Shown piece by piece: positions 10,976 to 34,252 of a DNA stretch of 64,000 bases. The stretch covers positions 11,013 to 75,012 of the forward strand of contig DUEY01000002.1 in NCBI GenBank assembly GCA_011174795.1, given 5' to 3'. The first letter of the stretch is position 1. Each line of letters begins with the position of its first letter. The position numbers and the translations under genes are program-made. The notes below the pieces were generated by a model. It saw only the letters and a program-made list of their open reading frames with translations. It did no database searches and was not told the origin of the DNA. The stretch comes from Dehalococcoidia bacterium. GTDB lineage: Bacteria > Chloroflexota > Dehalococcoidia > SZUA-161.

Positions 10976-12445
10976 ATGAGCGAACGAAATGTCCGGGTGC
11001 GCTTCGCACCCAGCCCAACCGGATACCCCCATATCGGGAATATCAGGACCGCGCTGTTCAACTGGCTCTTCGCCAGGCACAGCGGCGGCAGCTTTATCGT
11101 ACGTATCGAAGACACCGATGTAAGCCGCAAAGTAAAAGGAGCGATAGAAGCTATACTAGACGGGCTGCGCTGGCTGGGGATAGACTGGGACGAAGGGCCG
11201 GATATTGGCGGCGATTACGGGCCCTATTTCCAGTCACAGCGCCTGGACATCTACCAGAAGATTGCACGGCTCCTGGTAGCGGATGGCTATGCATATTACT
11301 GCTACTGCTCCCCGGGGCGACTCGCCAAGATGCGAGCCGAAATGGCCGAGCGCAAGGAATCGACGCGCAGCTATGACCGCCACTGCCGTAACCTGAGTCA
11401 GGAGGAACGGGACAAATTCGAAGCTCAGGGTATAACTCCCGTAGTCCGGTTCAAGACCCCCCTCGATGGTGAGACCAGCTTCAATGACTTGATTAAGGGA
11501 GAGGTGACGTTCGACAACAGCACCCTCGATGACTTCGTGCTGCTCAAGTCTGACGGATACCCGACCTATCACCTCGCCAACATAGTTGACGACCACCTGA
11601 TGGAAATCTCACACGTCCTCAGAGCCGACGAATGGTTGTCGAGCACCCCGCGCCATATCCTGCTCTACAGCGCCCTTGCCTACGAGCCGCCGCTGTTCAC
11701 ACACCTGCCTATGATCCTGGGAAGCGATGGCAGCAAGTTGAGCAAGAGGCACGGCGCTGTATCTATCACCGAATACCGCGACCAAGGATACCTGCCGCAG
11801 GCGATGATAAACTTCCTCACCCTGCTCGGCTGGTCGCTGGATGACCGTACCGAGCTCTTTACCACTGAGGAACTGGTGCGCCATTTCTCACTGGAGCGTA
11901 TCAGCAAGACCGGGGCTATATTCAGCCAGGACAAGCTGATGTGGATGAACGGGCACTACATCCGCAACATGAGCCCTGGGGAATTGAGAGAGCATTTGCT
12001 GCCCTTCCTGGAGAAACACCTGCCCGAAGAGGTAAAGCGGCCTGTATCACGGGAATATGTGCAGCAGATAATACCGCTAATCCAAGAGCGGTTGACGACT
12101 TTTAAAGAAGCAGCGGACCAATTCGCCTTCTTTTTCATAGACCAGCCCGATTACGAACCCGACCTTCTTCTCGGTAAGAAGCTAACCAGGGAAGCCGCAA
12201 TAGCAGCTCTCGTGGACGCTCTGACCCAGCTTCGAAAACTGACCTTCGAAGCGTCATCCCTCGAACTGGCGCTGCGTCCCCTTGCCTCTGAGTTGGGGAT
12301 GAAGACAGGCGATTTCTTCGGCCTGCTCAGGGTGGCGACTACGGGAAGCACCGCAGCCCCACCCCTCTTCCAGACCATGGCCGTGCTGGGTAAAGACAAG
12401 TGCCTCAAGCGCATTGAGGCTGCGCTTGATAAGCTTCGCAGGTAA
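10976..12445 (+). CDS. gltX: glutamate--tRNA ligase
   Basis: RFAPSPTGYPHIGN (HIGH-like) and KLSKRHG motifs. 489 aa. Confidence 0.9.
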   Translation: MSERNVRVRFAPSPTGYPHIGNIRTALFNWLFARHSGGSFIVRIEDTDVSRKVKGAIEAILDGLRWLGIDWDEGPDIGGDYGPYFQSQRLDIYQKIARLLVADGYAYYCYCSPGRLAKMRAEMAERKESTRSYDRHCRNLSQEERDKFEAQGITPVVRFKTPLDGETSFNDLIKGEVTFDNSTLDDFVLLKSDGYPTYHLANIVDDHLMEISHVLRADEWLSSTPRHILLYSALAYEPPLFTHLPMILGSDGSKLSKRHGAVSITEYRDQGYLPQAMINFLTLLGWSLDDRTELFTTEELVRHFSLERISKTGAIFSQDKLMWMNGHYIRNMSPGELREHLLPFLEKHLPEEVKRPVSREYVQQIIPLIQERLTTFKEAADQFAFFFIDQPDYEPDLLLGKKLTREAAIAALVDALTQLRKLTFEASSLELALRPLASELGMKTGDFFGLLRVATTGSTAAPPLFQTMAVLGKDKCLKRIEAALDKLRR

Positions 12446-18085: not shown

Positions 18086-18269
18086 GCAGGCTACAACAGG
18101 AAAACGGCCCTGTAGCCTATGTGCCCTTCATTCAGGAGAGCAGGCTGCTTGAAGAAGACCCACACTGGCCGGATGACTTGACGCCAGCGAGCAGTAGCTT
18201 TAACATAGCACAACACCCCTATAATAATGATATGTGGCATCCTATTCAGGATGTAAAGAGAACGATAAG

Positions 18270-19067
18270 ATGATAATTGTAGGTGAGAAGATAAACACCA
18301 GCCGCCGGAGTATTGCGGAAGCCGTCGAGAAGCGGGATACTGACTTCATTGTCGGTGTGGCGAGAGAGCAAGCCGAAGCCGGCGCTAATTATATCGATGT
18401 CAATGCCGGAACTTTTTTAGAGCAAGAGGCTGATTGCCTCTGCTGGCTGGTCGAGACAGTACAGAACAGTATAGACCTGCCACTTTGCTTAGACAGTCCC
18501 AATCCAGCAGCACTATCCGAAGCAGCAAGGCGCCACAGAGGGGAACCGATGATCAATTCAATTTCACTGGAAGCAGACCGTTTCCAGTCCCTGCTCCCCG
18601 TGGTCACTTCCCAACCCTGTCATATCGTCGCCCTCTGCATGTCCGAAACATCAATGCCTATTACTACAGAGGAAAGAGTCCAGGTTGGTTCAGAACTCAT
18701 TAAGAAGCTTACAGACGAAGGTATTCCCCTTGGAAAGATTTATGTCGACCCATTGGTACAGCCTGTTTCCGTCGATATCCAAATGGGAATAGCTACGCTC
18801 AATGCTATAACGAGGCTTATGAATGACTTTCCCGGCGTTAACACCATTTGCGGCCTTTCCAACGTCTCTTTCGGGCTTCCGGAAAGACACCTGATCAATC
18901 GCAGCTTCCTGGCTCTTTGTATGGCGTCCGGCCTTTCTGCCGTTATTCTTGACCCGACTGATAAAAAACTCATGGCTACGCTCCTGGCCGTTGACATGCT
19001 TCTGGGACAAGACGAATACTGCGAAAAATACATAGATGCCTACCAGAACGGCACTATTGCTGGATAA
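18270..19067 (+). CDS. methyltetrahydrofolate:corrinoid methyltransferase (pterin-binding, MtrH/MeTr/AcsE-like)
   Basis: MIIVGEKINTSRR...GANYIDVNAG is the pterin-binding (DHPS-like) fold of MtrH/MeTr. Start moved to the MIIVGEKIN Met by analogy with the paralog at 34253-35062. Confidence 0.75.
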   Translation: MIIVGEKINTSRRSIAEAVEKRDTDFIVGVAREQAEAGANYIDVNAGTFLEQEADCLCWLVETVQNSIDLPLCLDSPNPAALSEAARRHRGEPMINSISLEADRFQSLLPVVTSQPCHIVALCMSETSMPITTEERVQVGSELIKKLTDEGIPLGKIYVDPLVQPVSVDIQMGIATLNAITRLMNDFPGVNTICGLSNVSFGLPERHLINRSFLALCMASGLSAVILDPTDKKLMATLLAVDMLLGQDEYCEKYIDAYQNGTIAG

Positions 19068-19108
19068 TAGCCATCCTTTTCCATTTGTACAGAAAAAGTT
19101 AAAGGGGG

Positions 19109-19753
19109 ATGAAAATGGGTGAGTATAAGGCATTAAACGGGGCTGTGCTCAAGGGGGATATCAATACAGCGACAGCGGAGATGCAAAAAGCCATAGATGC
19201 CGACAAAAACGTTCAGGATATCATCGACAACGGGCTCATTGCCGCCATGGACGAGGTTGGCGAGAGGTTCTCCAAAGGGCTGCTGTTCGTACCCCAGATG
19301 CTGCGCGCAGCCAAGACTATGCAGGAGTGCATGAAACTGATCGAGCCCCTTCTTCAGAAAGGCGATGTTACCCCCAAGGGAAAGGTGCTGATTGGCACAG
19401 TCAGGGGCGACCTTCACGACATCGGGAAAAACCTCGTTTCCATGATGATGGAGAGCGCAGGATTCATGATAACCGACCTGGGAGTGGATGTCCCCCCGGA
19501 GAAGTTTGTCCAAAAGGCACAAGAAGTGGAACCGGACATCGTCGCCATGTCAGCTTTGCTCTCCACCACCATGCCGGCCATGCCCCAGACCATCGAGGCT
19601 CTGGGCAAAGCCGGGCTCAGAGCCAAAGTCAAGGTGATGATTGGCGGAGCACCGGTTACCGAGAACTACGCCCATGAAATCAGGGCAGACGCCTATGCGT
19701 CCGATGCTGGTTCTGCCGTGAGCAAAGCTAAAAAGCTACTCGGTATTTCCTGA
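19109..19753 (+). CDS. cobalamin-binding corrinoid protein (MttC/MtbC-like)
   Basis: B12-binding DxHxxG motif (DLHDIGKN), N-terminal helical cap, Rossmann-like B12 domain. Confidence 0.8.
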   Translation: MKMGEYKALNGAVLKGDINTATAEMQKAIDADKNVQDIIDNGLIAAMDEVGERFSKGLLFVPQMLRAAKTMQECMKLIEPLLQKGDVTPKGKVLIGTVRGDLHDIGKNLVSMMMESAGFMITDLGVDVPPEKFVQKAQEVEPDIVAMSALLSTTMPAMPQTIEALGKAGLRAKVKVMIGGAPVTENYAHEIRADAYASDAGSAVSKAKKLLGIS

Positions 19754-19794
19754 GCAAGCTCAAAAAGATATCTCCGTCACAAAGGAGGAGAGCT

Positions 19795-21243
19795 ATGAAA
19801 TCATTAAATATCCCCACCTTTCTCCCCCGATTAAAAGTACTGAACCGAGAACAGGCGTTAGCAATACACCAGGCTGCTTTAGAAATCCTGGAAAAGACGG
19901 GATTTAAGATGGAGCACCCCGACGCCCATCAAATGCTTGTCGATGCCGGGGGCAAGGTTACCAATGACGGTCGGCTTACATTACCTGCTTACCTTGTTGA
20001 AGAGGCCTTAAAAACAACTCCGAAACAGATCGCACTTTATGACCAGAAGGGCAACAAAACGATGCCCCTGGTAGACGGCAATCCATTCTACGGCACAGGT
20101 TCGGACGCCACATTCACCCTGGACCTGGAGACCGGTCAACGTCGGCGAGCTGTCTTAAAAGACGTCGCCAATTTCGCCAGACTGGTGGACAACCTTGAAA
20201 ATATCTCCTTCGCCATGTCTATGGCCAATCCCGACGATGTTCCCGTAGAGGATATCTATGTCTACGTTTTTGCCGAGATGATTAAAAACATCAACAAACC
20301 CATCGTATTCATTGCAGACAGCGGCAGAGACATTGCCAAGATCTACGAAATCGCCTGCCTTGTGGCAGGCGGTGAAGAGGAATTTCAGAAAAAACCGTTT
20401 ATGCTCAATTACTCGGAAGCCATCAGCCCTCTGCGCTTCCCGCAAAACGTTATGGAAAAACTCATTTTCTGTGCCCGGAAAAAGATACCGATTTGCCTTC
20501 CATCAGGCTCCAATGCCGGAGGCGGAGCCCCGATCACGATTGCCGGTGCCATGGCTTTGGGGATCGCCGAGAACCTGGTCGGGCTCGCTGTCCATCAGTT
20601 GACCAATAAGGGGGCGCCTTTCCTTTTCGGTCCCAATGTAAGCACTTTGGATATGAAGTCCACCGTAGTTTCTTACGGCTGCCCTGAATGGAGTCTCAGC
20701 CAAGCTGCCCTCGCTGATATGCGTGATGAAATGTACGGCTTGCCCACCTGGGCCTATGCCGGGGCCTCAGATGCTAAAGTAATGGATGCCCAGGCAGGAG
20801 CCGAGGCCATGTTTTCCATTATCACCGCCATGCTCTCCCGCTCGAATTTGATTCACGATGTAGGTTTCTTGGAATATGGGAATACCTCTTCGCTAGAGAT
20901 GGTGACCATGGCGAACGAACTGGTAGCCATGAGCCGCTTTTTTACCGAGGGTATCCCTGTCAACGAAGGGACCTTAGCCCTCGACGTAATAGAGAGGGTG
21001 GCCACTGGTGGCCCCGGTTCCATCTTCCTCACAGACGATCACACCTTCGATTATTTCAGGGAGGCCCAGTTTCTTCCACAGCTTCTAGACCGCTCCCGAT
21101 ACGATTCATGGAAAGAGGCCGGAGCTATGGACCTCTATACAGTCTGCAATACCGAAGCAAAGAGGATACTCTCGGAACATCAGGTCGAACCTAAAACCGA
21201 TGAGGTGCTTAACGAAGTCGATCGAATCCTTAAAGGACGCTGA
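19795..21243 (+). CDS. MttB-superfamily (trimethylamine methyltransferase-like, non-pyrrolysine) substrate:corrinoid methyltransferase
   Basis: Full-length 482-aa TIM-barrel MttB-family protein with no in-frame amber codon. Strong SD AGGAGGAG. Confidence 0.85.
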   Translation: MKSLNIPTFLPRLKVLNREQALAIHQAALEILEKTGFKMEHPDAHQMLVDAGGKVTNDGRLTLPAYLVEEALKTTPKQIALYDQKGNKTMPLVDGNPFYGTGSDATFTLDLETGQRRRAVLKDVANFARLVDNLENISFAMSMANPDDVPVEDIYVYVFAEMIKNINKPIVFIADSGRDIAKIYEIACLVAGGEEEFQKKPFMLNYSEAISPLRFPQNVMEKLIFCARKKIPICLPSGSNAGGGAPITIAGAMALGIAENLVGLAVHQLTNKGAPFLFGPNVSTLDMKSTVVSYGCPEWSLSQAALADMRDEMYGLPTWAYAGASDAKVMDAQAGAEAMFSIITAMLSRSNLIHDVGFLEYGNTSSLEMVTMANELVAMSRFFTEGIPVNEGTLALDVIERVATGGPGSIFLTDDHTFDYFREAQFLPQLLDRSRYDSWKEAGAMDLYTVCNTEAKRILSEHQVEPKTDEVLNEVDRILKGR

Positions 21244-21257
21244 TACGAAGTAGAATC

Positions 21258-23306
21258 ATGGGAAATAGCCTGCCATTATACAGACCACTAACCCCGAAAG
21301 ATGTCCAGCACATCGACCAAGCTGGGCGCCGAATACTGGAACGCATCGGCATCAGTATCTATGACAGTAAATTCCTCGACATTCTGAAAGCAGCAGGAGC
21401 TCAGGTAGATTACGACAATCAGAGAGTACGCTTTCCAGGAGACTGGCTTGATGAAGCTCTGGGCAAAGCCCCCTCTCGCTTCACGCTATACTCTCGAGAT
21501 GGTCGAAATGACCTTCATCTAGGAGAAGGCAACGTCTACTTCACCAACGGAGGCCGGGTATTTCGAATTCTCGACATGGGAACAAGCAATTACCGCTACA
21601 CCATGATAAGACATGTGGCACGTACTGCCGCCCTCGTGGAGCACCTGGAGCACATTCGACTTTATATCATTGCCTGTCAGGCTCACGCTCTTGAACCTCA
21701 AATATATCATTTGAACGATTTTTTCCACGCCTTCAACCATACTACGAAACATGTAATGGGAGGCTGCGATAACCTGGCAGGCGCTGAACAGGTATGGGAA
21801 CTCGCAAGCTTTATCGCAGGAGGAGAGGGTAAACTTAAAAAAAAGCCCTTCGTCTCGGTAATCACAAATATGATAAGTCCCCTTACTATTGAGACGAAAG
21901 CACTGAATATACTCGACTTTTGCACGAAACATGGTATACCCACTACATGCGCACCTGCGCCTATCGCCGGAGCCACCTCGCCCGCAACCCTGGCAGGGAC
22001 ACTTGCCCAGATGCATGCTGAAGCCTTGGCAGGAGTTGCCCTGACACAGGTGTTCGCCCCCGGCGCCAAGGTGCTCTATGGAGCTGTTCCCACGATAATG
22101 GATTTGCGAAAAATGGACTTCACAATGGGCTCGGTGGAAATGGCGATGATGAACGCTGCCGCAGTCCAACTGGCGAAGCTCTACAACCTGCCTATCTATG
22201 CCTCGGCCGGAGTCACCGAGGCTAAAAGACCTGACATTCAGGCTGGCTTCGAAAAGACCTTTTCCGATTTGCTCGTGGCTATGGCAGGGGCGGATTTCGT
22301 CCACCTGGCTGCCGGAATGCTGGATTCAGGGAATACCATTTCCTATGAACAGTATGTCATAGACAACGAGATTATCGGAATGGTTCAGAGGATACTGGCG
22401 GGCATTAAAGTGAATAAGGGTACGCTAGGACTGGATATAATCGAGAAAGTTGGGCCCGGCGGGAACTATGTCACGGAAGATCACACCGTCGAACATATGA
22501 TGGATGAATTCTTCTACCCCGCGTTAAGCGTGCGATTAAACTTCGATATATGGGAGGAAAGGGGACGTCCCAGCATATTAAGCCGCGCTAAAGACAAAGC
22601 GCAAGAAATCCTGAAAGACAGCAAAGAAGGCCTCCTGGAACCAGACCTGGTCGCTGAGATAGAAAAGGCTTTCCCCGCTATACAAATGTCAATTACAAAA
22701 TCGCCGACCAGGGCCAAACAAGCTACACGTATTATAGCTTGCATGGTTTTCAAACCTGTCCTCGATCATCTTCAATTGGAAAAAAGATATCGTAACCTGC
22801 GTATAACCTACCTGCCAGCCAACCTGCATATGAACCCGCAGAAGTTAAAAAACTACCTGCTGAAACAGATAGCCGCAGCTGAGAAAAGAAACGAGCGAAT
22901 CATATGCCTTTACGGGGACTGCTTTCCAGATATTGACGACTTTTGCGAACAGCATGGAGCAATGAAAGCTCCTGGGACTCACTGCTATGAAATGCTTCTG
23001 GGGAGTGATCAATTCAAGCAGCTTACTGAAGAAACGGCAGGTACCTATTTTCTGGAGAAAGAACTTATTCTCAACTTCGACGAATTTTGTATTCAGCCCT
23101 TGGAACTCTATGATGAAGAAATGCGAAAATATTGCTTCGAACACTACAAGAGGCTGCTCTATGTGAGGCAGCCCTCAGACCCGGATGTCACGCCCCAGAC
23201 AAAAGAACTGGTTGAATTCTTAGAGTTGCCTCTGGAGATTAGAAACGCTGATTATTCAGATCTCGAGAGGAAGTTAATCAAGTTAATCGAGCCTAGACTT
23301 CTTTGA
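21258..23306 (+). CDS. MttB-superfamily methyltransferase fused to a C-terminal ~200-aa Cys-containing domain of unknown function (DUF1638-like by recollection)
   Basis: The N-terminal ~480 aa are colinear with the other MttB paralogs. Unrelated extra C-terminal domain (CLYGDCFPDIDDFC...HCYE). Confidence 0.8.
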   Translation: MGNSLPLYRPLTPKDVQHIDQAGRRILERIGISIYDSKFLDILKAAGAQVDYDNQRVRFPGDWLDEALGKAPSRFTLYSRDGRNDLHLGEGNVYFTNGGRVFRILDMGTSNYRYTMIRHVARTAALVEHLEHIRLYIIACQAHALEPQIYHLNDFFHAFNHTTKHVMGGCDNLAGAEQVWELASFIAGGEGKLKKKPFVSVITNMISPLTIETKALNILDFCTKHGIPTTCAPAPIAGATSPATLAGTLAQMHAEALAGVALTQVFAPGAKVLYGAVPTIMDLRKMDFTMGSVEMAMMNAAAVQLAKLYNLPIYASAGVTEAKRPDIQAGFEKTFSDLLVAMAGADFVHLAAGMLDSGNTISYEQYVIDNEIIGMVQRILAGIKVNKGTLGLDIIEKVGPGGNYVTEDHTVEHMMDEFFYPALSVRLNFDIWEERGRPSILSRAKDKAQEILKDSKEGLLEPDLVAEIEKAFPAIQMSITKSPTRAKQATRIIACMVFKPVLDHLQLEKRYRNLRITYLPANLHMNPQKLKNYLLKQIAAAEKRNERIICLYGDCFPDIDDFCEQHGAMKAPGTHCYEMLLGSDQFKQLTEETAGTYFLEKELILNFDEFCIQPLELYDEEMRKYCFEHYKRLLYVRQPSDPDVTPQTKELVEFLELPLEIRNADYSDLERKLIKLIEPRLL

Positions 23307-23350
23307 TAGTCAGAGCTTTTCAAACGAACCGTAGCCGGTCTTAAGCGGAT

Positions 23351-25306
23351 ATGGGAGTTAATATGAGGAAACATCAATTGGAAACGCCACAGCATGAAAA
23401 ATTTAGGAGAGGAAAACGCCCTATTGGAACCTCCGTGCTGAAAAAAAGTAGAACACAATACGTCTGGCTGAATGTTCTACCCGATGACCTCTGGCTGAAG
23501 GTTCGCCAGGGGGAAACTGTCTGGGGAGCTTTGAAAAGAGAAGGGGTTGAACTGGAAAGCGACTGTGGCGGACTGGGTAAATGCGGTAAATGCAAAGTGC
23601 GTGTCCTCTCTTCGATAGGGCCTCCATCTAAGGAAGAAGAAGAACTCCTCGATGAGGAGGAGTTGAAACAAGGCATCCGCCTCGCCTGCCGCACCGAAGT
23701 AGACAAAGACTTTGTGATTCATACCGAAGAAACCGATTTCGAGGCTGAGTATTTTCAGATTCTCAAAACCGGCCATCGGCCTTTTTTCCATACCCAGCCA
23801 CTTATAAACAAGCGGTTAATAACCCTGCCCCCAGATTTATTGGACGAGGGGATATCCGAGATGGACCGGATTAAAATGGTGATGGTCCCCGAATATCAAG
23901 ACCTTGTAGCCCCTATCCACTGTCTCCGTACGTTACCCGAAAGGCTAGATGCAACTGATTACCATGGAGCGGCAGTGCTCCATGAGAACTCACTGCTGGC
24001 CTGGCAAGACTGGGAGGAAGTGGACTGCCACTTCGGATTGGTCTACGACCTCGGTACCAGTACACTGGTGGGCAAGCTAATCAGTCTGATAGACGGAAGC
24101 GAAGTCGCCGTAGTCTCCTGCCTCAATAGCCAGATGAAGTACGGCTCAAATGTTATCAGTCGGCTCAAATACCTGCAGGACCATGCCAACGGCCTCGAAA
24201 GGTTCCATAACCTTCTCATCAATGACTTGAACCGCATCACTACACGCCTATTAAAAGCAGCCAATCTTCAGCCGAACGACGTTTTTATCGCCGTTGCGGC
24301 GGGTAACACCACCATGCAGCATTTTCTTCTTACACTGGACCCTTCAGGGATCGCCGAAGCGCCGTTCTCGCCTGTATTAACCGACGGGCTGATTGTGGGA
24401 GCAGCAGCCGTTGGCCTCGAATTGCACCCTGAAGCCCTCTGCTATGTGATGCCAACCAAATCCGGTTATATCGGCGGAGATCTAATCAGCGTCATCCTCA
24501 CCTCTGGAGCCTGGGAACAGGAGGATGAAATTATATTGGGGCTGGATCTTGGCACCAATGGAGAAATATTTCTCGGCAACCACAAGAGACTCCTGACATG
24601 CTCAGCTGCCGCCGGCCCTGCCCTCGAGGGCGCAACAATCTCACACGGGATGATTGCCAAGGCTGGAGCTATAGAAGGCGTCAGCGTAGAAGCGGACAAT
24701 GTGAGCTATCAGATCATCGGGAATATAAAGCCCAAAGGAGTTTGTGGGAGCGGACTGGTCGATTTAGTCGCAGTGTTGTTACATTGCGGCTATATAAACC
24801 ACGAAGGCCTGCTCCGTCCACCCCGTAAAAATAGAATAGAGAGCCTGGATTCAAAAATGATCAAGCGGGCAGGAGTTTATGAATTCCTCATCGCGTCCGC
24901 GGAGGAAAGTTATAGCAGTAGACCTATGTACCTCACGCAAAAAGACATTCGAGAACTCCAACTCGCCAAAGCTGCCGTAGCAGCCGGTATACAAATTTTA
25001 ATGAACGATATGGGCATCGTCACCGAGGACATCAAACACGTTTACCTCGCCGGTGCACTCGGTAATTATGTAGACCCGTTGAGTGCCATACGTACCGGTC
25101 TTATTCCTAGATTTAATCCAGAAATTGTCACGTCATTGGGCAACGCCGCCAGCACGGGGGCTTCAATGGCCCTTTTGTCCAAGAACTACTGGCGGATGGC
25201 TAACGAGCTTTCAGACTTCATCGAGCACGTTGAGCTTTCCTCTCGCCTCGACTTCAATGAATTTTTTGTCGAGAACATGGATTTTCCTAAAGGTAATATA
25301 TGGTAA
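23351..25306 (+). CDS. reductive activator of corrinoid enzymes (RACE/RamA-like ASKHA ATPase with N-terminal 2Fe-2S ferredoxin domain)
   Basis: N-terminal plant-type ferredoxin motif CGGLGKCGKCKV, followed by an acetate/sugar kinase-like ATPase domain as in corrinoid activases. Confidence 0.8.
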   Translation: MGVNMRKHQLETPQHEKFRRGKRPIGTSVLKKSRTQYVWLNVLPDDLWLKVRQGETVWGALKREGVELESDCGGLGKCGKCKVRVLSSIGPPSKEEEELLDEEELKQGIRLACRTEVDKDFVIHTEETDFEAEYFQILKTGHRPFFHTQPLINKRLITLPPDLLDEGISEMDRIKMVMVPEYQDLVAPIHCLRTLPERLDATDYHGAAVLHENSLLAWQDWEEVDCHFGLVYDLGTSTLVGKLISLIDGSEVAVVSCLNSQMKYGSNVISRLKYLQDHANGLERFHNLLINDLNRITTRLLKAANLQPNDVFIAVAAGNTTMQHFLLTLDPSGIAEAPFSPVLTDGLIVGAAAVGLELHPEALCYVMPTKSGYIGGDLISVILTSGAWEQEDEIILGLDLGTNGEIFLGNHKRLLTCSAAAGPALEGATISHGMIAKAGAIEGVSVEADNVSYQIIGNIKPKGVCGSGLVDLVAVLLHCGYINHEGLLRPPRKNRIESLDSKMIKRAGVYEFLIASAEESYSSRPMYLTQKDIRELQLAKAAVAAGIQILMNDMGIVTEDIKHVYLAGALGNYVDPLSAIRTGLIPRFNPEIVTSLGNAASTGASMALLSKNYWRMANELSDFIEHVELSSRLDFNEFFVENMDFPKGNIW

Positions 25307-27033
25307 GAAAAAATAAGAATAAACATCAAAGCAGTGTAACCATTGGTGTTGTCGGCGCCGGCGGCGATGGGGTTGTGGTGCTGGGCAGTTTCTTACAGAG
25401 ACTTGCTGCCTCACAGGGATATTTCAGCCAGATGCCCAGGTACTATGGTGCCCAGATTCGAGGTGGAAGCTCAGCAGTAAAACTGGAGTTGAATGCAGAA
25501 TCCCTATCACTGCCCAAAGATAGCCTAGACATTCTTGTATGTTTTAACTGGGATAAGTATCTGGAGTTTGAGCAGGAACTACCGCTTGCGGTTGATACCT
25601 TGGTAATCTACGAGACTAAACCCCAAGGCGCTATCAAATTGCCAGAGCCGTCATTTCAAGTCGATTTTTCTAAAAAAAGTAAAGAGGTAACCGGTTCAAC
25701 ACAAAACAAGAATATCGTAGCACTGGGATTACTGAAGAGAATTCTGGCCCTGCCTGATAAAAAGGTAAAGGTAGCTATTGAAACCGACATTGAATTAGAA
25801 CTGTTAAAGGCGAATCTTCCCGCCCTCGAAGCGGGTGAGCACTTATTTCCAGAATTGTCTCTCCCCGAGTTTAAATTAGCCCCGGCAACAGATAAGTCTG
25901 CTAAACTGATTATCCATGGAAATGCCGCTATGGCACAAGCTGCAATACACGCCGATTGCCGGGCTTTTTTTGGCTACCCCATTACACCCGCAGCAGAAAT
26001 TATGCAGGAAATGCAAAAGGAGCTTTCCCGGAATAAGGGCGTCTTCCTTCAAACAGAGGACGAGATTGCTTCAGCAGGACTTGTTATCGGTTCTTCCATC
26101 GTTGGTGCGAAGTCGATGACCTCCACCAGCGGTCCGGGACTCGATTTGATGACCGAGATGATGGGCCTAGCTTCTGCCGCTGAAATTCCGATGGTTATCA
26201 TCGATGTACAGCGCTGCGGGCCATCTACCGGCATACCGTCCAAGTCCGAGCAGTCAGACCTCAATCATGCCATCTACGGCGGTCACGGTGACGGACCCAG
26301 AGTGGTTCTGGCTCCCTACGACGTAGAAGGGTGTTACCGCCTCGTTATCGAGGGTTTCAGTATCGCTCAATATTTCCAGACCCCTGTCGTTATACTCTCC
26401 GATCAGTGGCTGGGACAAACCTTTCTCGCAATAAACAACAGATTCATGACTGAAGACTACCCAAGCCATGCAAGAATAAGCCCCGCAGTAAATGAGCTCG
26501 CTGATTATCACCGTTACCAGTTGACAGATAAGCTGATTTCGCCGATGGCAGCCGTAGGGGACGAAGGATTTACGTATCAAACAACCGGCCTTACTCACAA
26601 TGAGGAGGGGGCGCCGGCCTTCGATTTCGAGACCCATCAGAGAATGCATGAGAAAAGGTGGAGGAAACTGGCGCCGCTTTGCCAGAGGAATGATCTGGTT
26701 AAGGTTTTTGGTAAAGAGGAATCAAGCACAGGAATAATAACCTGGGGCTCCTCCGCTCAGGTTGTCCTGGAAACGGTCAAAGCCCTCGGGTTAGAGCATA
26801 GTCTCAAGCTTTGTGTACCAGAACTGGTCCACCCTCTACCAATAGGGGTCGAGAGGTTTATAAGCTCCATAAAAAAACTTCTAGTGGTCGAGATGAATTA
26901 TTCCGGGCAGTTTTATCATTATCTTCGGTCTCAAATAGACTTGCCCAAGAAAACCGAGCTCTACGCAAGGGCTGGAGGTCGACTCTTCAGCAGGAAAGAG
27001 CTTGCCCAACCCATAACAAAGGTGGCGAAATGA
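25300..27033 (+). CDS. 2-oxoacid:ferredoxin oxidoreductase, fused gamma-alpha subunit
   Basis: N-terminal gamma-like domain (GVVGAGGDG) and KorA/PorA core (GNAAMAQAAIHADCRAFFGYPITPA). Start overlaps the RACE stop by 7 nt (ATGGTAA). Confidence 0.8.
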   Translation: MVRKNKNKHQSSVTIGVVGAGGDGVVVLGSFLQRLAASQGYFSQMPRYYGAQIRGGSSAVKLELNAESLSLPKDSLDILVCFNWDKYLEFEQELPLAVDTLVIYETKPQGAIKLPEPSFQVDFSKKSKEVTGSTQNKNIVALGLLKRILALPDKKVKVAIETDIELELLKANLPALEAGEHLFPELSLPEFKLAPATDKSAKLIIHGNAAMAQAAIHADCRAFFGYPITPAAEIMQEMQKELSRNKGVFLQTEDEIASAGLVIGSSIVGAKSMTSTSGPGLDLMTEMMGLASAAEIPMVIIDVQRCGPSTGIPSKSEQSDLNHAIYGGHGDGPRVVLAPYDVEGCYRLVIEGFSIAQYFQTPVVILSDQWLGQTFLAINNRFMTEDYPSHARISPAVNELADYHRYQLTDKLISPMAAVGDEGFTYQTTGLTHNEEGAPAFDFETHQRMHEKRWRKLAPLCQRNDLVKVFGKEESSTGIITWGSSAQVVLETVKALGLEHSLKLCVPELVHPLPIGVERFISSIKKLLVVEMNYSGQFYHYLRSQIDLPKKTELYARAGGRLFSRKELAQPITKVAK

Positions 27034-27857
27034 GGGCACGTGCCGATTACAGGACAACTCTCAAGCCAGTCTGGTGCGCGGGCTGTGGTAATTTCGGCCT
27101 GCTCAACGCCCTAACCAAGAGAGTGCTGCCCGAGATCGGGATTCCCAACTATCAAACCCTTATCATTTCCGGCATCGGCTGCTCCTCGCGGATCCCTGCT
27201 TATATAGACACCTACGGTTTTAATAGCATACATGGCCGAGCACTGGTTATCGCACAGGGAGCGAAACTGGCAAAACCTGAGCTGACGGTAGTAGCCGTAG
27301 GTGGTGACGGTGATTTCTTCAGCATCGGAGCAGGCCATCTTCCCCACGCAGTGCGAAGAAACATCGATATCACCTGCATCATGGTCAACAACTTTGTCTA
27401 TGCCCTGACGAAAGGGCAGATTAGCCCCACAACACCACACCTGCTAAGAGGTGAAGGGCCTTTTCTTTCACTGGAACAGTACCCACCGGTCGACCCACTT
27501 CTGGATATGATCAGCTACAGCCTTTCAACCCGGGCTAGCTTCATCGCCCAGGGGATAACCACGGATATCCCTCATCTCGAATGGCTCATAAAGGAAGGGA
27601 TTGAACACAAAGGGTTTTCCTACATAAGTGTGTTCTCGCACTGCGTTACCTTCAATCCGCCGGAGCTATTCAGCACAATAAGAGCGAATGCACGCTATCT
27701 GCAAGAGGGCGAACTAGTCGAATTGCCAGCATCATCAAGAGAGAAGCCCTGGAGACACGACCTGAGCGACATAAGCCGCGCTCTACAACTGGCCCAGATC
27801 TCACTTCTCGATGAACCGCTTCTGGGGATATTCTTCCGAGGAAAAGAAGTCTATTGA
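27030..27857 (+). CDS. 2-oxoacid:ferredoxin oxidoreductase beta subunit (TPP-binding)
   Basis: CAGCGNFG and TPP motif GGDGDFF. ATGA start/stop overlap with the alpha subunit. Confidence 0.8.
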   Translation: MRARADYRTTLKPVWCAGCGNFGLLNALTKRVLPEIGIPNYQTLIISGIGCSSRIPAYIDTYGFNSIHGRALVIAQGAKLAKPELTVVAVGGDGDFFSIGAGHLPHAVRRNIDITCIMVNNFVYALTKGQISPTTPHLLRGEGPFLSLEQYPPVDPLLDMISYSLSTRASFIAQGITTDIPHLEWLIKEGIEHKGFSYISVFSHCVTFNPPELFSTIRANARYLQEGELVELPASSREKPWRHDLSDISRALQLAQISLLDEPLLGIFFRGKEVY

Positions 27858-28767: not shown

Positions 28768-30357
28768 TCAGTGCACATGTTTCAAGTCGCCATCCATCGT
28801 GCCCCTCACCTTCTCCCTCTCCTCGGCAAAATCGAAACCCGTCCAGATTCCGATTGAACCAAGCACCGAGTCCTGAGGATGGTACTTACGGAAGATTTTA
28901 AAATAGTATGCCGCTTCCCGGCTGTTTATCTTCGCCAAAGGATTCTCAGCCTTGATGCGCTCGAAATCATCCTCACTTATTTCACTGTGAGCCAGCTTTT
29001 CCCCAAGGTCTTCGCAGCCCGCTCCCTGTGTGTACTGCACCTTGTAGCGCCATAGTATATCGTCGGGGAGGTAACCGGTATCTTCAAACGCCTTGCGCAG
29101 AATCCACTTCTCTATCCTATCCCCGACATATTCAGACTCACGAATCTTGAGCTCGGGAGGAATCTTCATAGCGAGGTCGACCATAGCTACATCCAAGAAA
29201 GGCACCCGTAACTCCAGGCTGAAGTACATCCCCATTCGGTCCGCACGCTGCAGGTTTATATTATGGAGATTGCCGATGCAGCGCCTCGCCTCCTTATTGA
29301 GAACATCAATGGGATAATGCTTCATATAGTGATAGCCCGTGAATATCTCGTCCGCCCCCTCACCTGTGAGCACCACCGTCACGTAATCGGCAGCCAGCTT
29401 GCAGGTGAAATAACAGGGAACGGCACAGCGTACAAGTGAAGGATCGTAGCTCTCAAGCTCCTTTATAACAATCGGCAGCGCCTCATAGTATTCATCCTCG
29501 GTAAATATCAACTCGTGATGTGTTGAGCCAATATGTTTTGCCGCAATACGGGAGGCCTTAAGGTCATCGCTCTCATCGCCGGATTCATCCTTCATGCCCA
29601 CCACGAAGGTGTGAAGATGAGGTATCTCTTCAGCAGCTATTGCAGCCACCAAGCTGCTGTCCAAACCGCCACTGCAGAAGGAGCCCACATGGATCTCCTT
29701 ATCCGACAACAACCTTTTCTTAACCGCCCGAATAAACGTTTCCCTGATTTTCATACAGGTCTGGTCTATATCCGTCAACATATGATCTTCGATAGGCGGA
29801 ATCTCATAGTACTGTACAAACCCCTCCTTAGGGGTGTAATAGTGCCCGGCGGGAAACTCATGACACTCCTCCACACCAGCCAGCGTCATAGCACCGAGTT
29901 CCGAGGAGAAATAAAGCTTGTCCTCAACATAGCCATAGTAGAGGGGTTTAATACCGATAGGATCGCGGGCCAGCATAAAATCATCACCATCGAAGATGGC
30001 AAATGCGAACATACCATCGAGTTCTTCTACACACCGAGGTCCTTTCTCTCGGTAAAGATGAAGAATTGATTCAGTATCCGACTGGGTCAGGAACTCGTAT
30101 TTAGAGATGAGCTTCTGCCGTAACTCCCGGTAGTTGTAGATTTCACCATTACAGATTATCCCCGTCCTTCCACCATTTACCAGAATGGGCTGATGGCCTT
30201 TAGCAACATCGACAATAGACAGCCTGGTGTGACCAAATACCGTGTTGTTGAAAGTATGGAGTCCGCGGTCATCTGGCCCTCGATGAGGCAGTGCGTCCAG
30301 CATTCGATTGATTGTCTTTTCGTCTCTGGTGCCAAAACAACCTGCTATGCCACACAT
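28768..30357 (-). CDS. asnB: asparagine synthase (glutamine-hydrolysing) family protein
   Basis: N-terminal MCGIAG Cys nucleophile, RLSIVD glutamine-binding motif, PP-loop SGGLDSS. Confidence 0.85.
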   Translation of the reverse strand: MCGIAGCFGTRDEKTINRMLDALPHRGPDDRGLHTFNNTVFGHTRLSIVDVAKGHQPILVNGGRTGIICNGEIYNYRELRQKLISKYEFLTQSDTESILHLYREKGPRCVEELDGMFAFAIFDGDDFMLARDPIGIKPLYYGYVEDKLYFSSELGAMTLAGVEECHEFPAGHYYTPKEGFVQYYEIPPIEDHMLTDIDQTCMKIRETFIRAVKKRLLSDKEIHVGSFCSGGLDSSLVAAIAAEEIPHLHTFVVGMKDESGDESDDLKASRIAAKHIGSTHHELIFTEDEYYEALPIVIKELESYDPSLVRCAVPCYFTCKLAADYVTVVLTGEGADEIFTGYHYMKHYPIDVLNKEARRCIGNLHNINLQRADRMGMYFSLELRVPFLDVAMVDLAMKIPPELKIRESEYVGDRIEKWILRKAFEDTGYLPDDILWRYKVQYTQGAGCEDLGEKLAHSEISEDDFERIKAENPLAKINSREAAYYFKIFRKYHPQDSVLGSIGIWTGFDFAEEREKVRGTMDGDLKHVH

Positions 30358-30426: not shown

Positions 30427-31908
30427 TTATGCATTATCCAGGAAGAAAGCCGGCCTGAAAGGATCCCACCTGCCTACTAACCTATCGAAGGCAGGATCGG
30501 GGAATGTCTCCTTGAACATCCGGTAGTAATACAACTCCTCAACTGACGACAACCAGGGGGTATCCTCGGTCCTGTTGTGTTCTGCCAGGTCGATTGATGA
30601 GAGGTGCTTCTCAGCCTCCTCACGCATAGCATACGCTACACCAGAGCCCTGAGCGAAGAACCGCTTCGTCTGGTAGATGATGTGGTCGGGCAAACAACCC
30701 TCAAAGGCCTGTCGCAGGACCCACTTCCCCGTCTGCTCAGGGCCATGAATCTTGCAACTTAGTGGGATCTTCAGACAAAAGTCCATCACCCTTGCATCGA
30801 GGAACGGTGTGCGGCTTTCATACGAATTCGCAGCATTCAGTCTATCCAGCCGTTGTAGTGCTGTATTATGAGCAACATTGATAAGCTGGTCGACTATACT
30901 GGCGATCTCCTCAAGGTTTTTTCCCTGCCTGAACTGGCCGTCATACCCGGCTAAGAACTCATCAGCCCCTTCCCCAGTAAGAACGCACTTAGCATGCGGG
31001 CTGACAAAGCGCCCTGCCAAGAAATTGGCGATTGCACCGTGTACACAGCTTTCCTCATACATCTCCTGATGATAGATGGCCAAAGGCAGTATCTCGCTTA
31101 TCTCTTTTTCGCTAAACATCAAGATATGATGCTTAAGGCCAAGGTACTCCGTCACATCCTTTGCCAGCGGCAGGTCCTGCCCCTCCTCCATACTCACCGT
31201 AAAGCATTCGATATCCGGCTTTACCTCGTGGGCCATATAGGCAATAAGGCTGCTGTCCAGACCGCCACTCAGGAGGATACCTTTTACAGCGTTGTCCCTC
31301 ATCCTCTTTTCAGTTGCTTCCATTAAAAGCTGCTTTACCACTTTCTTGGCTTGCTCATAATCCTCGAAATCCGGTGTTTCGACGGCCTCGGAAGTCGGAT
31401 ACTTCTGGAATCCCAGTTCGCGGGAGTAAACGTATCCGGGCGGGAACTCCCTGACATCTCTAGAGATGCCCACCAGTGCTTTTGCCTCAGATGCAAAGCA
31501 CAGGCTCCCATCACTGTTATGCCCGTAGTATATCGGTTTAATACCAGCCCAATCACGAGCCAGTATTAGCTTGCCATTATCCGACACGGCACAGGCAAAG
31601 TCGCCGTTTATCTTAGCGGCAAAGCGGGTGCCGAACCTGACGTACAGGTCAAGCACAGCCTCAGCGTCGGCTTTAGTTCCCTTATCCGAATTGTAAACAC
31701 GCCCATCGAGAACGACCGCTACCTTGCCGTCAGAGGTATAATGGGAGCCATCCCTGCAGTCTGCACCCATATTCAGCTCATTGCAACCTACATTCACCTC
31801 GCCTTCGCGGCTCGTCCAAGTCTCGTGAGGGCCTCTGTGCTTGATCCGCTCAAGCATTCGGTCTAGCTCACCGTTATCAGCACCCTGAACTCCCGCTATT
31901 CCTGCCAA
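30427..31908 (-). CDS. AsnB-family ATP-dependent amidoligase with degenerate glutaminase domain (Cys1 replaced by Ala; beta-lactam-synthetase-like architecture)
   Basis: The N-terminus is MAGIAG (no Cys), and the glutamine-binding RLSI motif is replaced. The PP-loop SGGLDSS is retained. Confidence 0.75.
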   Translation of the reverse strand: MAGIAGVQGADNGELDRMLERIKHRGPHETWTSREGEVNVGCNELNMGADCRDGSHYTSDGKVAVVLDGRVYNSDKGTKADAEAVLDLYVRFGTRFAAKINGDFACAVSDNGKLILARDWAGIKPIYYGHNSDGSLCFASEAKALVGISRDVREFPPGYVYSRELGFQKYPTSEAVETPDFEDYEQAKKVVKQLLMEATEKRMRDNAVKGILLSGGLDSSLIAYMAHEVKPDIECFTVSMEEGQDLPLAKDVTEYLGLKHHILMFSEKEISEILPLAIYHQEMYEESCVHGAIANFLAGRFVSPHAKCVLTGEGADEFLAGYDGQFRQGKNLEEIASIVDQLINVAHNTALQRLDRLNAANSYESRTPFLDARVMDFCLKIPLSCKIHGPEQTGKWVLRQAFEGCLPDHIIYQTKRFFAQGSGVAYAMREEAEKHLSSIDLAEHNRTEDTPWLSSVEELYYYRMFKETFPDPAFDRLVGRWDPFRPAFFLDNA

Positions 31909-31978: not shown

Positions 31979-32653
31979 CTACTGGTAGGCGTCCAGTACC
32001 TTAACAGCATCGAAGCCATCCACACAATAGGCATCCGCCCCTATCTCGCTGGCGTACTCATCGGACACCGCTGCCCCACCAATGAGAACCTTAACCTTGT
32101 CCCTGAGGCCACTCTCCTCCAGCGCCTTAATTACATTACCCATGACTACCATCGTGGTTGTCAGTAGAGCGGACAGCCCCAGATACTGAGGCTTCTCTTC
32201 CCTGACGAACTCAACAATCTTCTCCGTGGGCACATCTATACCCAGGTCATGCACCTCGTATCCCGCCCCTTTGAGCAAAATGGACACAATGTTCTTCCCG
32301 ATATCGTGTATATCACCCTGAACCGTGGCTATAGCGAATTTCCCCTTGGTCTCCACATTAGAAGCTTCCAGATGCGGCTTGAGCACATCCATGGCTGCGC
32401 CTACCGCCTCGGCAGAGGCAAGCATATCGGGGATGAAGTATTCCTTCGTAGAGAATTTCTCACCTACCACCTGCATCCCCGCAGTCAAACCCTCCGTGAT
32501 TATCACCTGCGGTGAGATACCCTTATCCAGAGCCTCCTTCGTCAACTCAAGAACACCGGGACCCGTGAGTTCCTCATCTATCCCTTCATCTTCCTCGGTT
32601 TTTCTTCCCTGGATAACGTTCTCCTTCATTGCCGCAATAATGTCCTCGCCCAT
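31979..32653 (-). CDS. cobalamin-binding corrinoid protein (second copy)
   Basis: DxHxxG motif (DIHDIGKN). Paralog of the 19109-19753 protein. Confidence 0.8.
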   Translation of the reverse strand: MGEDIIAAMKENVIQGRKTEEDEGIDEELTGPGVLELTKEALDKGISPQVIITEGLTAGMQVVGEKFSTKEYFIPDMLASAEAVGAAMDVLKPHLEASNVETKGKFAIATVQGDIHDIGKNIVSILLKGAGYEVHDLGIDVPTEKIVEFVREEKPQYLGLSALLTTTMVVMGNVIKALEESGLRDKVKVLIGGAAVSDEYASEIGADAYCVDGFDAVKVLDAYQ

Positions 32654-32655
32654 TT

Positions 32656-34197
32656 TTATCTCCTTTCCTCATATACGTTTAGTCTCGGCAACAAGCCGGG
32701 AATCTCCTGGAATATCTTAGCTGTTGTAGCCTTATCAATATGCTCTACCGGCTTCTCCAGGAGTTCCTGCATCCTGTCATATGCTATTTTAAATACGCTG
32801 TCCGTCTCCCCATCACCCTCAAAGGGATAGGGCGGCGAGAGTTGCCCGCTACGCATAACCTTGCGGATATAGCTGATATAAAGCTTCTGTGGTGTCGTTA
32901 CGACCTCCCGTATCTGCTTCAAGACCTCAGCAATCTCAGTTTCGTCAATACGCGGCGGCCTTAGGAAAAACTTAATCATCTGGAAGTGGGCATCATCCAG
33001 CACAGCCTGAAGAAGGCAGAAAACGGAATTGCAGTCAAGCAGACCGTATGCGCAGTGCAAGTACTGGGGCCCGCTCAAGGTAACCAATATGTCTGAGAAT
33101 AAACGCTCTATCGATGCTTGCTGTCCGGGCGTCTTCGTATCACAGACGCCCGCAGTCGAATAGTTAGGTATCCTGTAGAATCGCGCCATCTGGACGCAGT
33201 CGACATTGTACTGGCTGGTTTCAACAGCACCGTAGGAATCGCCGAGGGTATCCATGCGAGCCCGAACGGGGACGCTTCCATAAATGACCGGCGTACCCTT
33301 ATTTACCAGCTGACTCAAGGTTATACCCGCTAGAACCTCCGCGTTTATCTGAGCCATGATACCTGCTTCCTTGATAGGAGCGGTGCTCCCCGCCTGGGGT
33401 GACGAAGAAACCACCAGTGGCAGTCCCCTTCGGCAAATCTCGATAAATGTATCCGTAGTGTCCTCGACAAATTGCAGGGGGCTCTTGACCAGACAGGTGA
33501 TGAAGGAGATGATGGGATTCTCCCTAAGCTCTTCCTCCCCACCCACTATTATCTTCGCCATATTCACAACATTATCTAGTTGCTTCAGGCTGGTTAACCC
33601 CGACATAAAATGCTTGGTGTTATTATTCAAAGAGGCGAAATATTTATTGACGTCCTTATTCTCCTCTGTTATGTCCCTATCCTGAATGTTAACTGTACGG
33701 ATGTAGCCATCCACAGTCTCCAGATGCTCACAGACATGTGCTGACTTGCAGAGGTCAGCCACAGTACCGCGTCGCGGGTGGAACTCAGGCACCTGAATCT
33801 CCGTAGCAGGGTCGGATTTCTTCACATAGGTCGGGAAATCGACATCCAGCCAGATATTGGTTTCAGAGCCCGTGATAAAACGTACCCTTGGCTCTTCGCC
33901 ATCCAGTATCAGCATGTTCTCGGGATTCCTAGCGCCTAATTTAACCGTCTTGGGTGCGCTATCGAGGGCCTCGATAACTACCTTCTCCGGGATTCTCACC
34001 AGCCAGCACGGATGGTCGCTGGGGGAAACCGGCGTAACCTCCGCACCTTTGCCATCGAATATCTCAGCGGCCTCACGATTGAAAGACATCAGGCCAGGGT
34101 CGCTCAATATCTCTATGGAAGCCTGGTGAATCTGTTCCACCTGCTCTCTGGTCATCCTTTCGTAAGGCTTCTCAACTAAGATTCCTTCCCTAGGCAC
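32656..34197 (-). CDS. MttB-superfamily methyltransferase (non-pyrrolysine)
   Basis: 513 aa, colinear with the other MttB paralogs, uninterrupted ORF. Confidence 0.85.
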   Translation of the reverse strand: MPREGILVEKPYERMTREQVEQIHQASIEILSDPGLMSFNREAAEIFDGKGAEVTPVSPSDHPCWLVRIPEKVVIEALDSAPKTVKLGARNPENMLILDGEEPRVRFITGSETNIWLDVDFPTYVKKSDPATEIQVPEFHPRRGTVADLCKSAHVCEHLETVDGYIRTVNIQDRDITEENKDVNKYFASLNNNTKHFMSGLTSLKQLDNVVNMAKIIVGGEEELRENPIISFITCLVKSPLQFVEDTTDTFIEICRRGLPLVVSSSPQAGSTAPIKEAGIMAQINAEVLAGITLSQLVNKGTPVIYGSVPVRARMDTLGDSYGAVETSQYNVDCVQMARFYRIPNYSTAGVCDTKTPGQQASIERLFSDILVTLSGPQYLHCAYGLLDCNSVFCLLQAVLDDAHFQMIKFFLRPPRIDETEIAEVLKQIREVVTTPQKLYISYIRKVMRSGQLSPPYPFEGDGETDSVFKIAYDRMQELLEKPVEHIDKATTAKIFQEIPGLLPRLNVYEERR

Positions 34198-34252
34198 GTT
34201 ATTCCTCCTGATTAACTCAACAATTAGCAGAGCCCTGGTATCTATATCGCGG

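Follow-up and report, generated by a model that had tools for sequence, protein, structure and literature searches.

The fused gene

This report concerns a gene in a 64,000-nucleotide stretch of Dehalococcoidia bacterium DNA (GenBank assembly GCA_011174795.1, contig DUEY01000002.1, positions 11,013 to 75,012; hereafter the window, in which all coordinates are given). The gene encodes a substrate-specific methyltransferase (MT1) of the MttB family joined to a C-terminal DUF1638 domain, and this fusion is genuine and inherited. An initial annotation, made from the sequence alone, had described a complete MttB barrel followed by a separate C-terminal domain in an open reading frame (ORF) of 682 residues, and had suggested DUF1638 as the family of the latter. 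Both statements were borne out by Pfam: the ORF matches PF06253 and PF07796, and its C-terminal 202 residues alone match PF07796. The fused methyltransferase is called MttB2 here, and its unfused paralogue directly upstream MttB1. The parts of the fused gene are as follows, the conservation figures being taken from an alignment of 80 diverse DUF1638 members with 20-53 % identity to the domain of the window.

21258-23306, + strand: MttB2::DUF1638 fused gene; 682 residues, ATG start, uninterrupted ORF (ORF listing and Pfam)
21258-22667, + strand: MttB domain, residues 1-470, non-pyrrolysine member (Pfam MTTB, PF06253)
22668-22724, + strand: linker, residues 471-489 (about 19 residues), from the former N-terminal tail of free-standing DUF1638
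22686-22688, + strand: Met477, in-frame ATG, relic DUF1638 start codon after a shortened A-run (ATA CAA ATG)
22725-23291, + strand: DUF1638 structural domain, residues 490-678, predicted α/β fold with seven strands (AlphaFold2)
22740-22742, + strand: codon of Cys495 (domain C19), end of strand β1; at least 90 % conserved
22827-22829, + strand: codon of His524 (domain H48), after strand β2; at least 90 % conserved
22920-22922, + strand: codon of Cys555 (domain C79, motif Y-G-D-C), after strand β3; invariant
22983-22985, + strand: codon of Cys576 (domain C100, motif (H/N)-C), after strand β4; invariant

Occurrence of the fusion

The fused protein is identical to HEY48631.1, annotated as "DUF1638 domain-containing protein" in a Dehalococcoidia metagenome-assembled genome (MAG), and the same protein was found on contigs of a sulfate-methane-transition-zone sediment metagenome. 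An identical gene of 2049 nucleotides (nt) is present in three other assemblies, the flanks of which differ from the window by 3-6 single-nucleotide polymorphisms (SNPs). Among the 120 full-length matches listed, five distinct fused proteins were found, namely that of the window and P0122, P0123, P0124, and P0125, with identities to it of 82 %, 71 %, 69 %, and 69 %, respectively. The fused homologues with enough flanking DNA are all in the same operon. P0122, from other samples, has the junction IQM(S/A)ITKS in common with the window but differs across the rest of the gene. Between these two genes, the synonymous divergence (dS) is approximately 0.9-1.5, and the ratio of nonsynonymous to synonymous divergence (dN/dS) is 0.09 in the MttB part and 0.078 in the DUF1638 part. 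These ratios of about 0.08-0.09 mean that both domains are under purifying selection; the ratio in the linker is 0.39, compared with about 0.08 in both domains.

A sequencing frameshift had been envisaged in the initial annotation. Such an error, or one of assembly, in the A-run, joining two genes that are really separate, would agree with two facts: nearly all relatives have two genes, and the junction differs from theirs by a single A in a short homopolymer. However, this homopolymer is only 3-4 A long, and the identical junction occurs in four assemblies with distinct flanking SNPs. It also occurs in P0122, in which about 18 % of the residues and many synonymous sites are different. Furthermore, the other three fused homologues (P0123, P0124, and P0125), again from other samples, have a junction without the methionine, the internal ATG being lost. 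Because the same junction is found in the four assemblies and in P0122, and fused homologues come from other samples, the fusion is not a sequencing error, and an artefact of this kind is hardly credible.

A survey of domain architectures showed both that fused relatives exist and that the fused state is rare, separate but coupled genes being the rule. The other 115 of the 120 full-length matches listed are unfused MttB orthologues of 463-484 residues with 71-79 % identity. When the DUF1638 part was used as the query, the best 120 matches were all free-standing proteins of about 196 residues with 63-71 % identity. In 15 species-representative genomes, including Nitrospiraceae, Desulfobacterales, and Syntrophales MAGs, 16 of 16 MttB-DUF1638 pairs were unfused. 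The metagenome scan used an alignment (A2) that confined the survey to the close DUF1638 subfamily, the diverse alignment (A1) being too divergent; it gave 58 informative loci, of which 55 have a separate upstream MttB2-type gene, one is fused (the P0122 contig), and two are without an upstream MttB. The same MttB subfamily precedes a separate, translationally coupled DUF1638 gene in 71 related loci. The fusion is thus a rare derived state.

Origin of the fusion

In the unfused pairs, the start of the DUF1638 gene is at most 10 nt from the mttB2 stop in 58 of 67 cases and overlaps it in 8, which indicates translational coupling. Of 55 pairs, 48 have the DUF1638 gene in the +1 frame. A recurrent unfused arrangement is ATA CAA AAT GCT TAA, in which the ATG is nested in the +1 frame (loci L005, L011, and L013). 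The corresponding junction of the window and P0122, ATA CAA ATG, has one A fewer, which brings the start codon of Met477 into frame and removes the mttB2 stop. In addition, a spacing of 14 residues between (G/A)I and T(R/H) is common to all five fused proteins. This spacing is exactly that predicted for a 1-nt deletion in a -8 overlap and agrees with a deletion origin. The fusion therefore looks like the product of a trivial 1-nt deletion at the stop/start overlap: loss of one A (CAAAATG to CAAATG) would have put the DUF1638 ATG into the mttB2 frame. The fused form has since persisted, with both domains under purifying selection.

Neighbour-joining trees with bootstrapping were made for the MttB part, the DUF1638 part, and a concatenation of both; the window groups with P0122 in 100 % of replicates. 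A clade of all five fused genes is recovered in only 0-5 % of bootstraps, and the nearest unfused relatives of the window are closer to it than the fused genes other than P0122. This non-monophyly suggests at least two independent fusions at a slippage-prone overlap, so that the fusion has probably occurred more than once, with the reservation that support deep in the trees is weak. The alternative of one ancient fusion and later fissions was also considered and set aside, as the required monophyly is unsupported (0-5 %); the deep branches are too weak for the events to be counted. As a separate observation, one Dehalococcoidales contig (L001) carries two separate MttB2-type/DUF1638 pairs, at 4012-6045 and 9275-11309, and in the first of these the two genes are in the same frame, the DUF1638 ATG lying only 3 nt past the TAG stop.

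The MttB domain

The PF06253 match covers residues 3-469 (E 2.9e-108; 362.5 bits against a cut-off of 25; profile positions 26-489 of 500). The match is full-length, showing that the MttB domain is complete and belongs to the MttB superfamily. Its nearest solved structure is MtgB (E 5e-71), followed by Methanosarcina MttB (E 2e-63). Assignment as trimethylamine MttB sensu stricto was rejected: the TIGR02369 score of 434.8 bits is below the cut-off of 525 and there is no in-frame TAG, and for these reasons the domain is classed as a non-pyrrolysine member. An MtgB-type glycine-betaine enzyme was rejected as well. Glycine betaine is bound in MtgB by Y97, R312, H348, and F356 (PMC13080624), and these residues are replaced by G, Y, L, and G, respectively, in the phmmer alignment of the fused MttB to 9yce_A, in which the loop around Y97 is less certain than the remainder.

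An Rfam PYLIS_3 match (53.6 bits against a gathering threshold of 38) was found at 35459-35558 on the - strand, within the MttB paralogue at 35079-36590. This paralogue has no in-frame TAG, and the match begins at an ATG (Met344) that is the pyrrolysine-equivalent codon. At the equivalent place in the fused gene, 22213-22311 on the + strand, a sub-threshold match was seen (30.9 against 38 bits). A function as a recoding signal was rejected, as both genes have sense codons at that position. Judging from the sequences, these matches probably reflect conserved MttB coding sequence and no working recoding element; they could be a relic of a pyrrolysine-encoding ancestor.

The DUF1638 domain

The PF07796 match covers residues 519-671 (E 9.6e-30; 104 bits against a gathering threshold of 27; profile positions 2-159 of 161), and both the profile score and the presence of all conserved residues place the domain in the DUF1638 family. 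The AlphaFold2 model of the domain, made with a 72-sequence alignment, has a predicted local distance difference test score (pLDDT) of 93.4 and a predicted template modelling score (pTM) of 0.86. In domain numbering, in which C19, H48, C79, and C100 correspond to Cys495, His524, Cys555, and Cys576 of the fusion, the predicted strands are at 14-19, 38-43, 71-75, and 92-94, then at 120-123, 156-161, and 183-187. Since the first strand is at fusion residues 490-495, the true linker is only about 471-489. In the AlphaFold model of the full-length protein, residues 471-485 have pLDDT values below 50 and each domain is folded; a flexible tether is thus predicted to join the two domains.

The Pfam match begins at domain residue 43, leaving strand β1 and Cys19 outside. 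As a side observation on the family itself, PF07796 sets in about 30 residues after the structural domain begins and leaves out the first β-α-β unit (fusion residues 477-518, 22686-22811), so that the family boundary looks too short at its N-terminus.

Several conserved-looking Cys and His residues had been pointed out in the initial annotation. Among these, Cys555 (of GDC), Cys576 (of HC), and His524 (the H of YLPANLH) are indeed conserved, and Cys549 and Cys563 are not. Cys495, which was absent from that list, is nearly invariant in the 80-member alignment. Gly106 and Gly119 (domain numbering) are also at least 90 % conserved, and the family motif D78-C79 is present in the window as D554-C555. 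The Cys3His tetrad is intact in every DUF1638 architecture examined. In the model, all four residues lie at or just after the C-terminal ends of β1-β4 in the first α/β lobe, which is the usual ligand-binding edge of α/β sheets. From this placement, they would converge on one site, and this site may be a metal site holding an Fe-S cluster or Zn. The earlier guess of metal binding fits the conserved tetrad.

The family seems to be without close relatives of known structure. A Foldseek search of the Protein Data Bank (PDB) with the DUF1638 model gave no match at E <= 1e-3; the best template modelling scores were about 0.4, to generic two-lobe α/β ligand-binding proteins of periplasmic-binding-protein or LacI-type folds. 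Sequence and profile searches of PDB chains with the domain yielded nothing meaningful, PADLOC found nothing, and NCBIfam has no model for DUF1638. An exhaustive HMMER search of 1.84 billion cluster representatives gave 677 clusters at E <= 1e-3; the family is therefore small.

Gene neighbourhood and other architectures

The fused gene is the fourth in a co-directional cluster at 18234-25306, downstream of which two oxidoreductase genes follow; together they make up an operon conserved in Dehalococcoidia. Its neighbours are as follows.

18234-19067, + strand: pterin-binding methyltransferase, MtgA/MeTr-like, a methyl-corrinoid:tetrahydrofolate methyltransferase (MT2); operon gene 1 (Pfam Pterin_bind, E 1.5e-20)
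19109-19753, + strand: corrinoid protein, B12-binding_2 cap and B12-binding domain (Pfam PF02607 and PF02310)
19795-21243, + strand: MttB paralogue 1 (MttB1), 482 residues, without DUF1638 (Pfam MTTB, E 1.5e-84)
23351-25306, + strand: RACo/RamA-type ATP-dependent reductive activase of corrinoid proteins (Pfam)
25300-27033, + strand: 2-oxoacid:ferredoxin oxidoreductase, fused gamma-alpha subunit (Pfam POR and POR_N)
27030-27857, + strand: probable 2-oxoacid:ferredoxin oxidoreductase beta subunit (motif CAGCGNFG…GGDGD, in the translation only)

Pfam thus shows MT1, corrinoid protein, MT2, and ATP-dependent activase encoded together, as in a RamA/RACo-type three-component system. The MT2 gene is in the equivalent position on two contigs of fused relatives (L024 and L025). 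The activase comprises a [2Fe-2S] Fer2 domain, RACo_middle, and a C-terminal ASKHA domain (RACo_C_ter) by Pfam, and its match to the NCBIfam AcsV/RamA-like models is below the cut-off. The gap between DUF1638 and RACo is 44 nt in the window, and RACo is immediately downstream of DUF1638 in 61 of 61 close-subfamily loci with enough sequence. The last 7 nt of the RACo gene are shared with the gamma-alpha gene, which is found 3' of RACo in L113 and L114 as well; the ATG of the beta gene overlaps the alpha stop codon. The beta subunit is a possible source of low-potential electrons, and the overlap of the RACo and oxidoreductase genes suggests a dedicated supply of such electrons for corrinoid reactivation.

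MttB1 shows 30 % identity to the fused MttB (BLASTP), and in 40 of 42 related loci an MttB1-type gene directly precedes the MttB2-type gene. The tandem is kept with a single corrinoid protein, and only MttB2 is coupled to DUF1638. Sequential demethylations, two substrates, or a hetero-oligomer are possibilities for two MT1 enzymes in tandem.

As the initial annotation had stated, DUF1638 accompanies corrinoid methyltransferase systems: all contexts examined have it adjoining MttB, RACo, or a corrinoid protein. A distribution in methanogens and acetogens, as given there, was not what the analysis found; the members encountered are from Dehalococcoidia, Desulfobacterota-type MAGs, a Nitrospiraceae MAG, and alpha-proteobacteria. 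Distant members, with 26-34 % identity to the domain of the window, occupy other positions. In a Labrys genome, DUF1638 is directly after a corrinoid protein with no MttB nearby. In soil contig L029, it overlaps the end of the RACo gene within a cluster of URO-D, corrinoid protein, pterin-binding methyltransferase, and RACo genes, and is followed by a small PF13769 protein; in another contig, PF13769 and PF12225 proteins follow it. PF13769 ("Virulence_fact", about 100 residues) stands directly after distant DUF1638 at 7599-7904 of L029, overlapping it, and at 7609-7911 of L031, and is fused to DUF1638 in P0310. It seems to be a second orphan partner and is neither fused nor adjacent to DUF1638 in the operon of the window.

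Other fusions were found among the cluster representatives. They include URO-D::DUF1638 proteins, one of which, WP_084092267.1, is from the cultured Malonomonas rubra; sensor histidine kinases in which DUF1638 takes the N-terminal input position, ahead of PAS, HisKA_2, and HATPase domains; and a combination with a DAO fragment. On the sequences, the MttB and URO-D fusions may legitimately be taken as "Rosetta-stone" evidence for physical partnership with a substrate-specific methyltransferase.

Proposed role of DUF1638

The genetics of the family come from alpha-proteobacteria. In Phaeobacter inhibens, the fitness patterns of PGA1_c13340 (DUF1638) and of a RamA-like protein match those of the split methionine synthase and are rescued by methionine; the DUF1638 mutant is a methionine auxotroph like the RamA-like mutant, and the two genes co-occur across alpha-proteobacteria (PMC5764234). 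Price et al. (2018) did not put forward a particular function for DUF1638 (PMC5764234). In Ruegeria pomeroyi, SPO2162 (DUF1638) and RamA are more abundant on N-osmolytes and are co-induced with MtgBCD, and both were treated as belonging to cobalamin reactivation (a PNAS paper of 2025, PMC12478193). In the library searched, DUF1638 is mentioned by only a handful of papers, and no description of the MttB::DUF1638 fusion, the conserved tetrad, or the DUF1638 fold was found.

It had been expected from the fusion that DUF1638 is tied directly to the methyl-transfer reaction. The MttB and URO-D fusions support this as regards partnership, and a direct part in the reaction did not emerge; the genetics (PMC5764234), together with the invariant presence of RACo alongside, suggest instead a part in maintaining or reactivating the corrinoid. 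On balance, the evidence tips slightly toward the reading that the real fusion carries, on its methyltransferase, a putative metal-binding accessory subunit that supports RACo-dependent reactivation. DUF1638 would be a stoichiometric accessory subunit docking on the substrate-specific methyltransferase, and the fusion would hard-wire this 1:1 complex via the flexible tether of about 19 residues. Partnership with the methyltransferase is proposed because the genes are translationally coupled and because MT1-type fusions of two independent kinds exist. A role in the corrinoid redox cycle together with RACo is proposed because of the genetics, the co-occurrence, and the invariant neighbourhood. 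Specifically, DUF1638 and RACo may keep the corrinoid protein competent by the ATP-dependent conversion of Co(II) to Co(I), a step that we consider plausible at somewhat less than an even chance. DUF1638 might serve as an electron relay, e.g., from the adjacent oxidoreductase or ferredoxin; alternatively, it might recognize the corrinoid protein, in its oxidized state on the methyltransferase, and pass it on to RACo. In either case, it is probably outside the methyl-transfer chemistry itself. A wider proposal is put forward only tentatively: DUF1638 would be a widespread extra component of RamA/RACo systems, namely a Cys3His metallo- or corrinoid-binding domain of new fold, docked on the methyltransferase and mediating the hand-off of electrons or cofactor state between corrinoid protein and activase, which was also recruited as a redox or B12 input of kinases.

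Several observations weigh against an accessory subunit of the methyltransferase, and most of them are those on which the main rival draws. In this rival, which seems fairly unlikely, the fusion is neutral and incidental: DUF1638 would work only with RACo or the corrinoid protein, its true partner, without contacting MttB2; the overlap would be a slippage hot-spot and the tether harmless. The fused form is rare (five distinct fused proteins against 115 unfused orthologues among the 120 matches listed) and arises by a trivial and probably recurrent mechanism, the clade of all five genes appearing in 0-5 % of bootstraps; an origin from an overlap slip, taken with the rarity, may mean that the fusion is selectively neutral. 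The neighbour of DUF1638 is variable (MttB, URO-D, corrinoid protein, or RACo), so that a common partner such as the corrinoid protein or RACo fits at least as well as the methyltransferase, and RACo is always downstream. Alpha-proteobacterial DUF1638 stands beside a corrinoid protein with no MttB nearby, and the methionine phenotype of P. inhibens involves no MttB (PMC5764234). The linker is disordered, and the full-length model, with a pTM of 0.60, shows no confident docking of the domains. Finally, the histidine-kinase fusions seem to fit ligand or redox sensing better than a simple electron relay. Against neutrality, however, the tight stop/start coupling is to mttB2 and not to RACo, from which DUF1638 is separated by the 44-nt gap, and it is conserved across several phyla. 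URO-D, a second MT1-type family, is also fused N-terminal to DUF1638, and the fused state has been retained over a dS of about 1, with constraint on both domains.

Two further readings assign DUF1638 another activity. It might be a corrinoid (B12) binding chaperone in which Cys or His provides an axial cobalt ligand, and which would load the corrinoid protein with its cofactor or hold the latter for it, acting as a B12 sensor in the histidine kinases. Cys-Co ligation is known in B12-trafficking proteins. Corrinoid-protein systems are the only setting in which the domain occurs; it stands in the place of a sensor domain in the kinases, and its two-lobed α/β architecture has ligand-binding folds as weak structural neighbours; it is also required for corrinoid-dependent methionine synthesis (PMC5764234). 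This reading is nevertheless improbable: no similarity to a known B12-binding domain or chelatase was detected by sequence or Foldseek, four conserved ligand-type residues exceed the need of an axial ligand, and the phenotype is unlike that of B12-biosynthesis genes (Price et al., PMC5764234). A redox or thiol switch on the methyltransferase, turning it off, e.g., under oxidizing conditions and standing outside the reactivation machinery, would account for the invariant cysteines, the sensor position in PAS/HisKA_2 kinases, and the fusion to a catalytic subunit. Loss of function in P. inhibens, however, abolishes methionine synthesis, which means that DUF1638 is required and not inhibitory, and the co-occurrence is with RamA in particular; such a switch is very improbable. 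The accessory-subunit reading remains the one preferred here.

Other features of the window

The window contains a second corrinoid methyltransferase cluster at 31979-36590 on the - strand, composed as follows.

35079-36590, - strand: MttB paralogue
34253-35062, - strand: pterin-binding methyltransferase
32656-34197, - strand: MttB paralogue
31979-32653, - strand: corrinoid protein

This cluster is without its own DUF1638 or RACo, so that, in total, there are four MttB paralogues in the window but only a single DUF1638 and a single activase. In addition, a thiamine pyrophosphate (TPP) riboswitch (70.9 bits) was found at 37665-37767 on the + strand, at the start of the called ORF 37717-39114; judging from this overlap, the true start of that gene is probably farther downstream. 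Tandem asparagine-synthase paralogues are located at 28768-30357 and 30427-31908 on the - strand. A divergent pair of class-I Glu/Gln-type tRNA synthetase genes comprises a glutaminyl-tRNA synthetase (GlnRS)-like gene at 9102-10781 on the - strand and a glutamyl-tRNA synthetase (GluRS)-like gene at 10976-12445 on the + strand.

Significance and comparison with known systems

Corrinoid methyltransferase systems are important to how methylated amines and osmolytes are turned over in sediments, in oceans, and in the gut. Corrinoid-protein-dependent methionine synthesis genetically requires DUF1638, which is also induced when abundant marine bacteria demethylate glycine betaine. The fusion event itself is ordinary; its value is that of a pointer to, and a practical construct for, an orphan domain. 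That DUF1638 is naturally fused to two unrelated families of methyltransferases shows which component it neighbours. The tetrad, in a confidently predicted fold without a solved homologue, provides four residues and a putative metal as handles, and the fused protein, being a single chain, lends itself to expression, metal analysis, and structure determination. On the wider proposal given above, the natural fusion would be a stable complex, ready-made for solving the function of DUF1638. If the reactivation role is correct, the four-protein picture of MT1, corrinoid protein, MT2, and activase would gain a fifth member.

The closest relatives of the fused gene are the unfused pairs (e.g., L004 and L005), which are orthologous (MttB 71-79 % and DUF1638 63-71 % identical) and have the same order, MttB1-MttB2-DUF1638-RACo. 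They consist of two ORFs with overlapping or close stop and start, whereas the window has one A fewer and a single product of 682 residues. PGA1_c13340 of P. inhibens and SPO2162 of R. pomeroyi, the only DUF1638 members with experimental data, belong to the same family and share the tetrad and the company of a corrinoid protein and RamA/RACo. They differ in being separate proteins of about 200 residues beside the corrinoid protein, approximately 26-30 % identical to the domain of the window, in aerobic alpha-proteobacteria; in the window, the domain is joined to MttB in an anaerobic member of the Dehalococcoidia. URO-D::DUF1638 proteins of the Malonomonas rubra type have a C-terminal DUF1638 with an intact tetrad as in the window, but the partner is of the unrelated URO-D (MtaA/MT2-like) fold family instead of MttB.

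MtgB/MtgC/MtgA with RamA of Desulfitobacterium hafniense, and Methanosarcina MttB, represent the same superfamily and the same logic of MT1, corrinoid protein, MT2, and activase. Unlike the fusion of the window, the matched MtgB and MttB chains are single-domain proteins of 477-503 residues without DUF1638. By analogy only, the role proposed for DUF1638 may be likened to that of MetH, in which a cofactor-rescue module is carried on the methyltransferase polypeptide. The reactivation domain of MetH, PF02965, binds S-adenosylmethionine (AdoMet) and is unrelated in sequence, DUF1638 having no match to PF02965; the likeness would thus lie in the arrangement of a rescue module on the methyltransferase chain.

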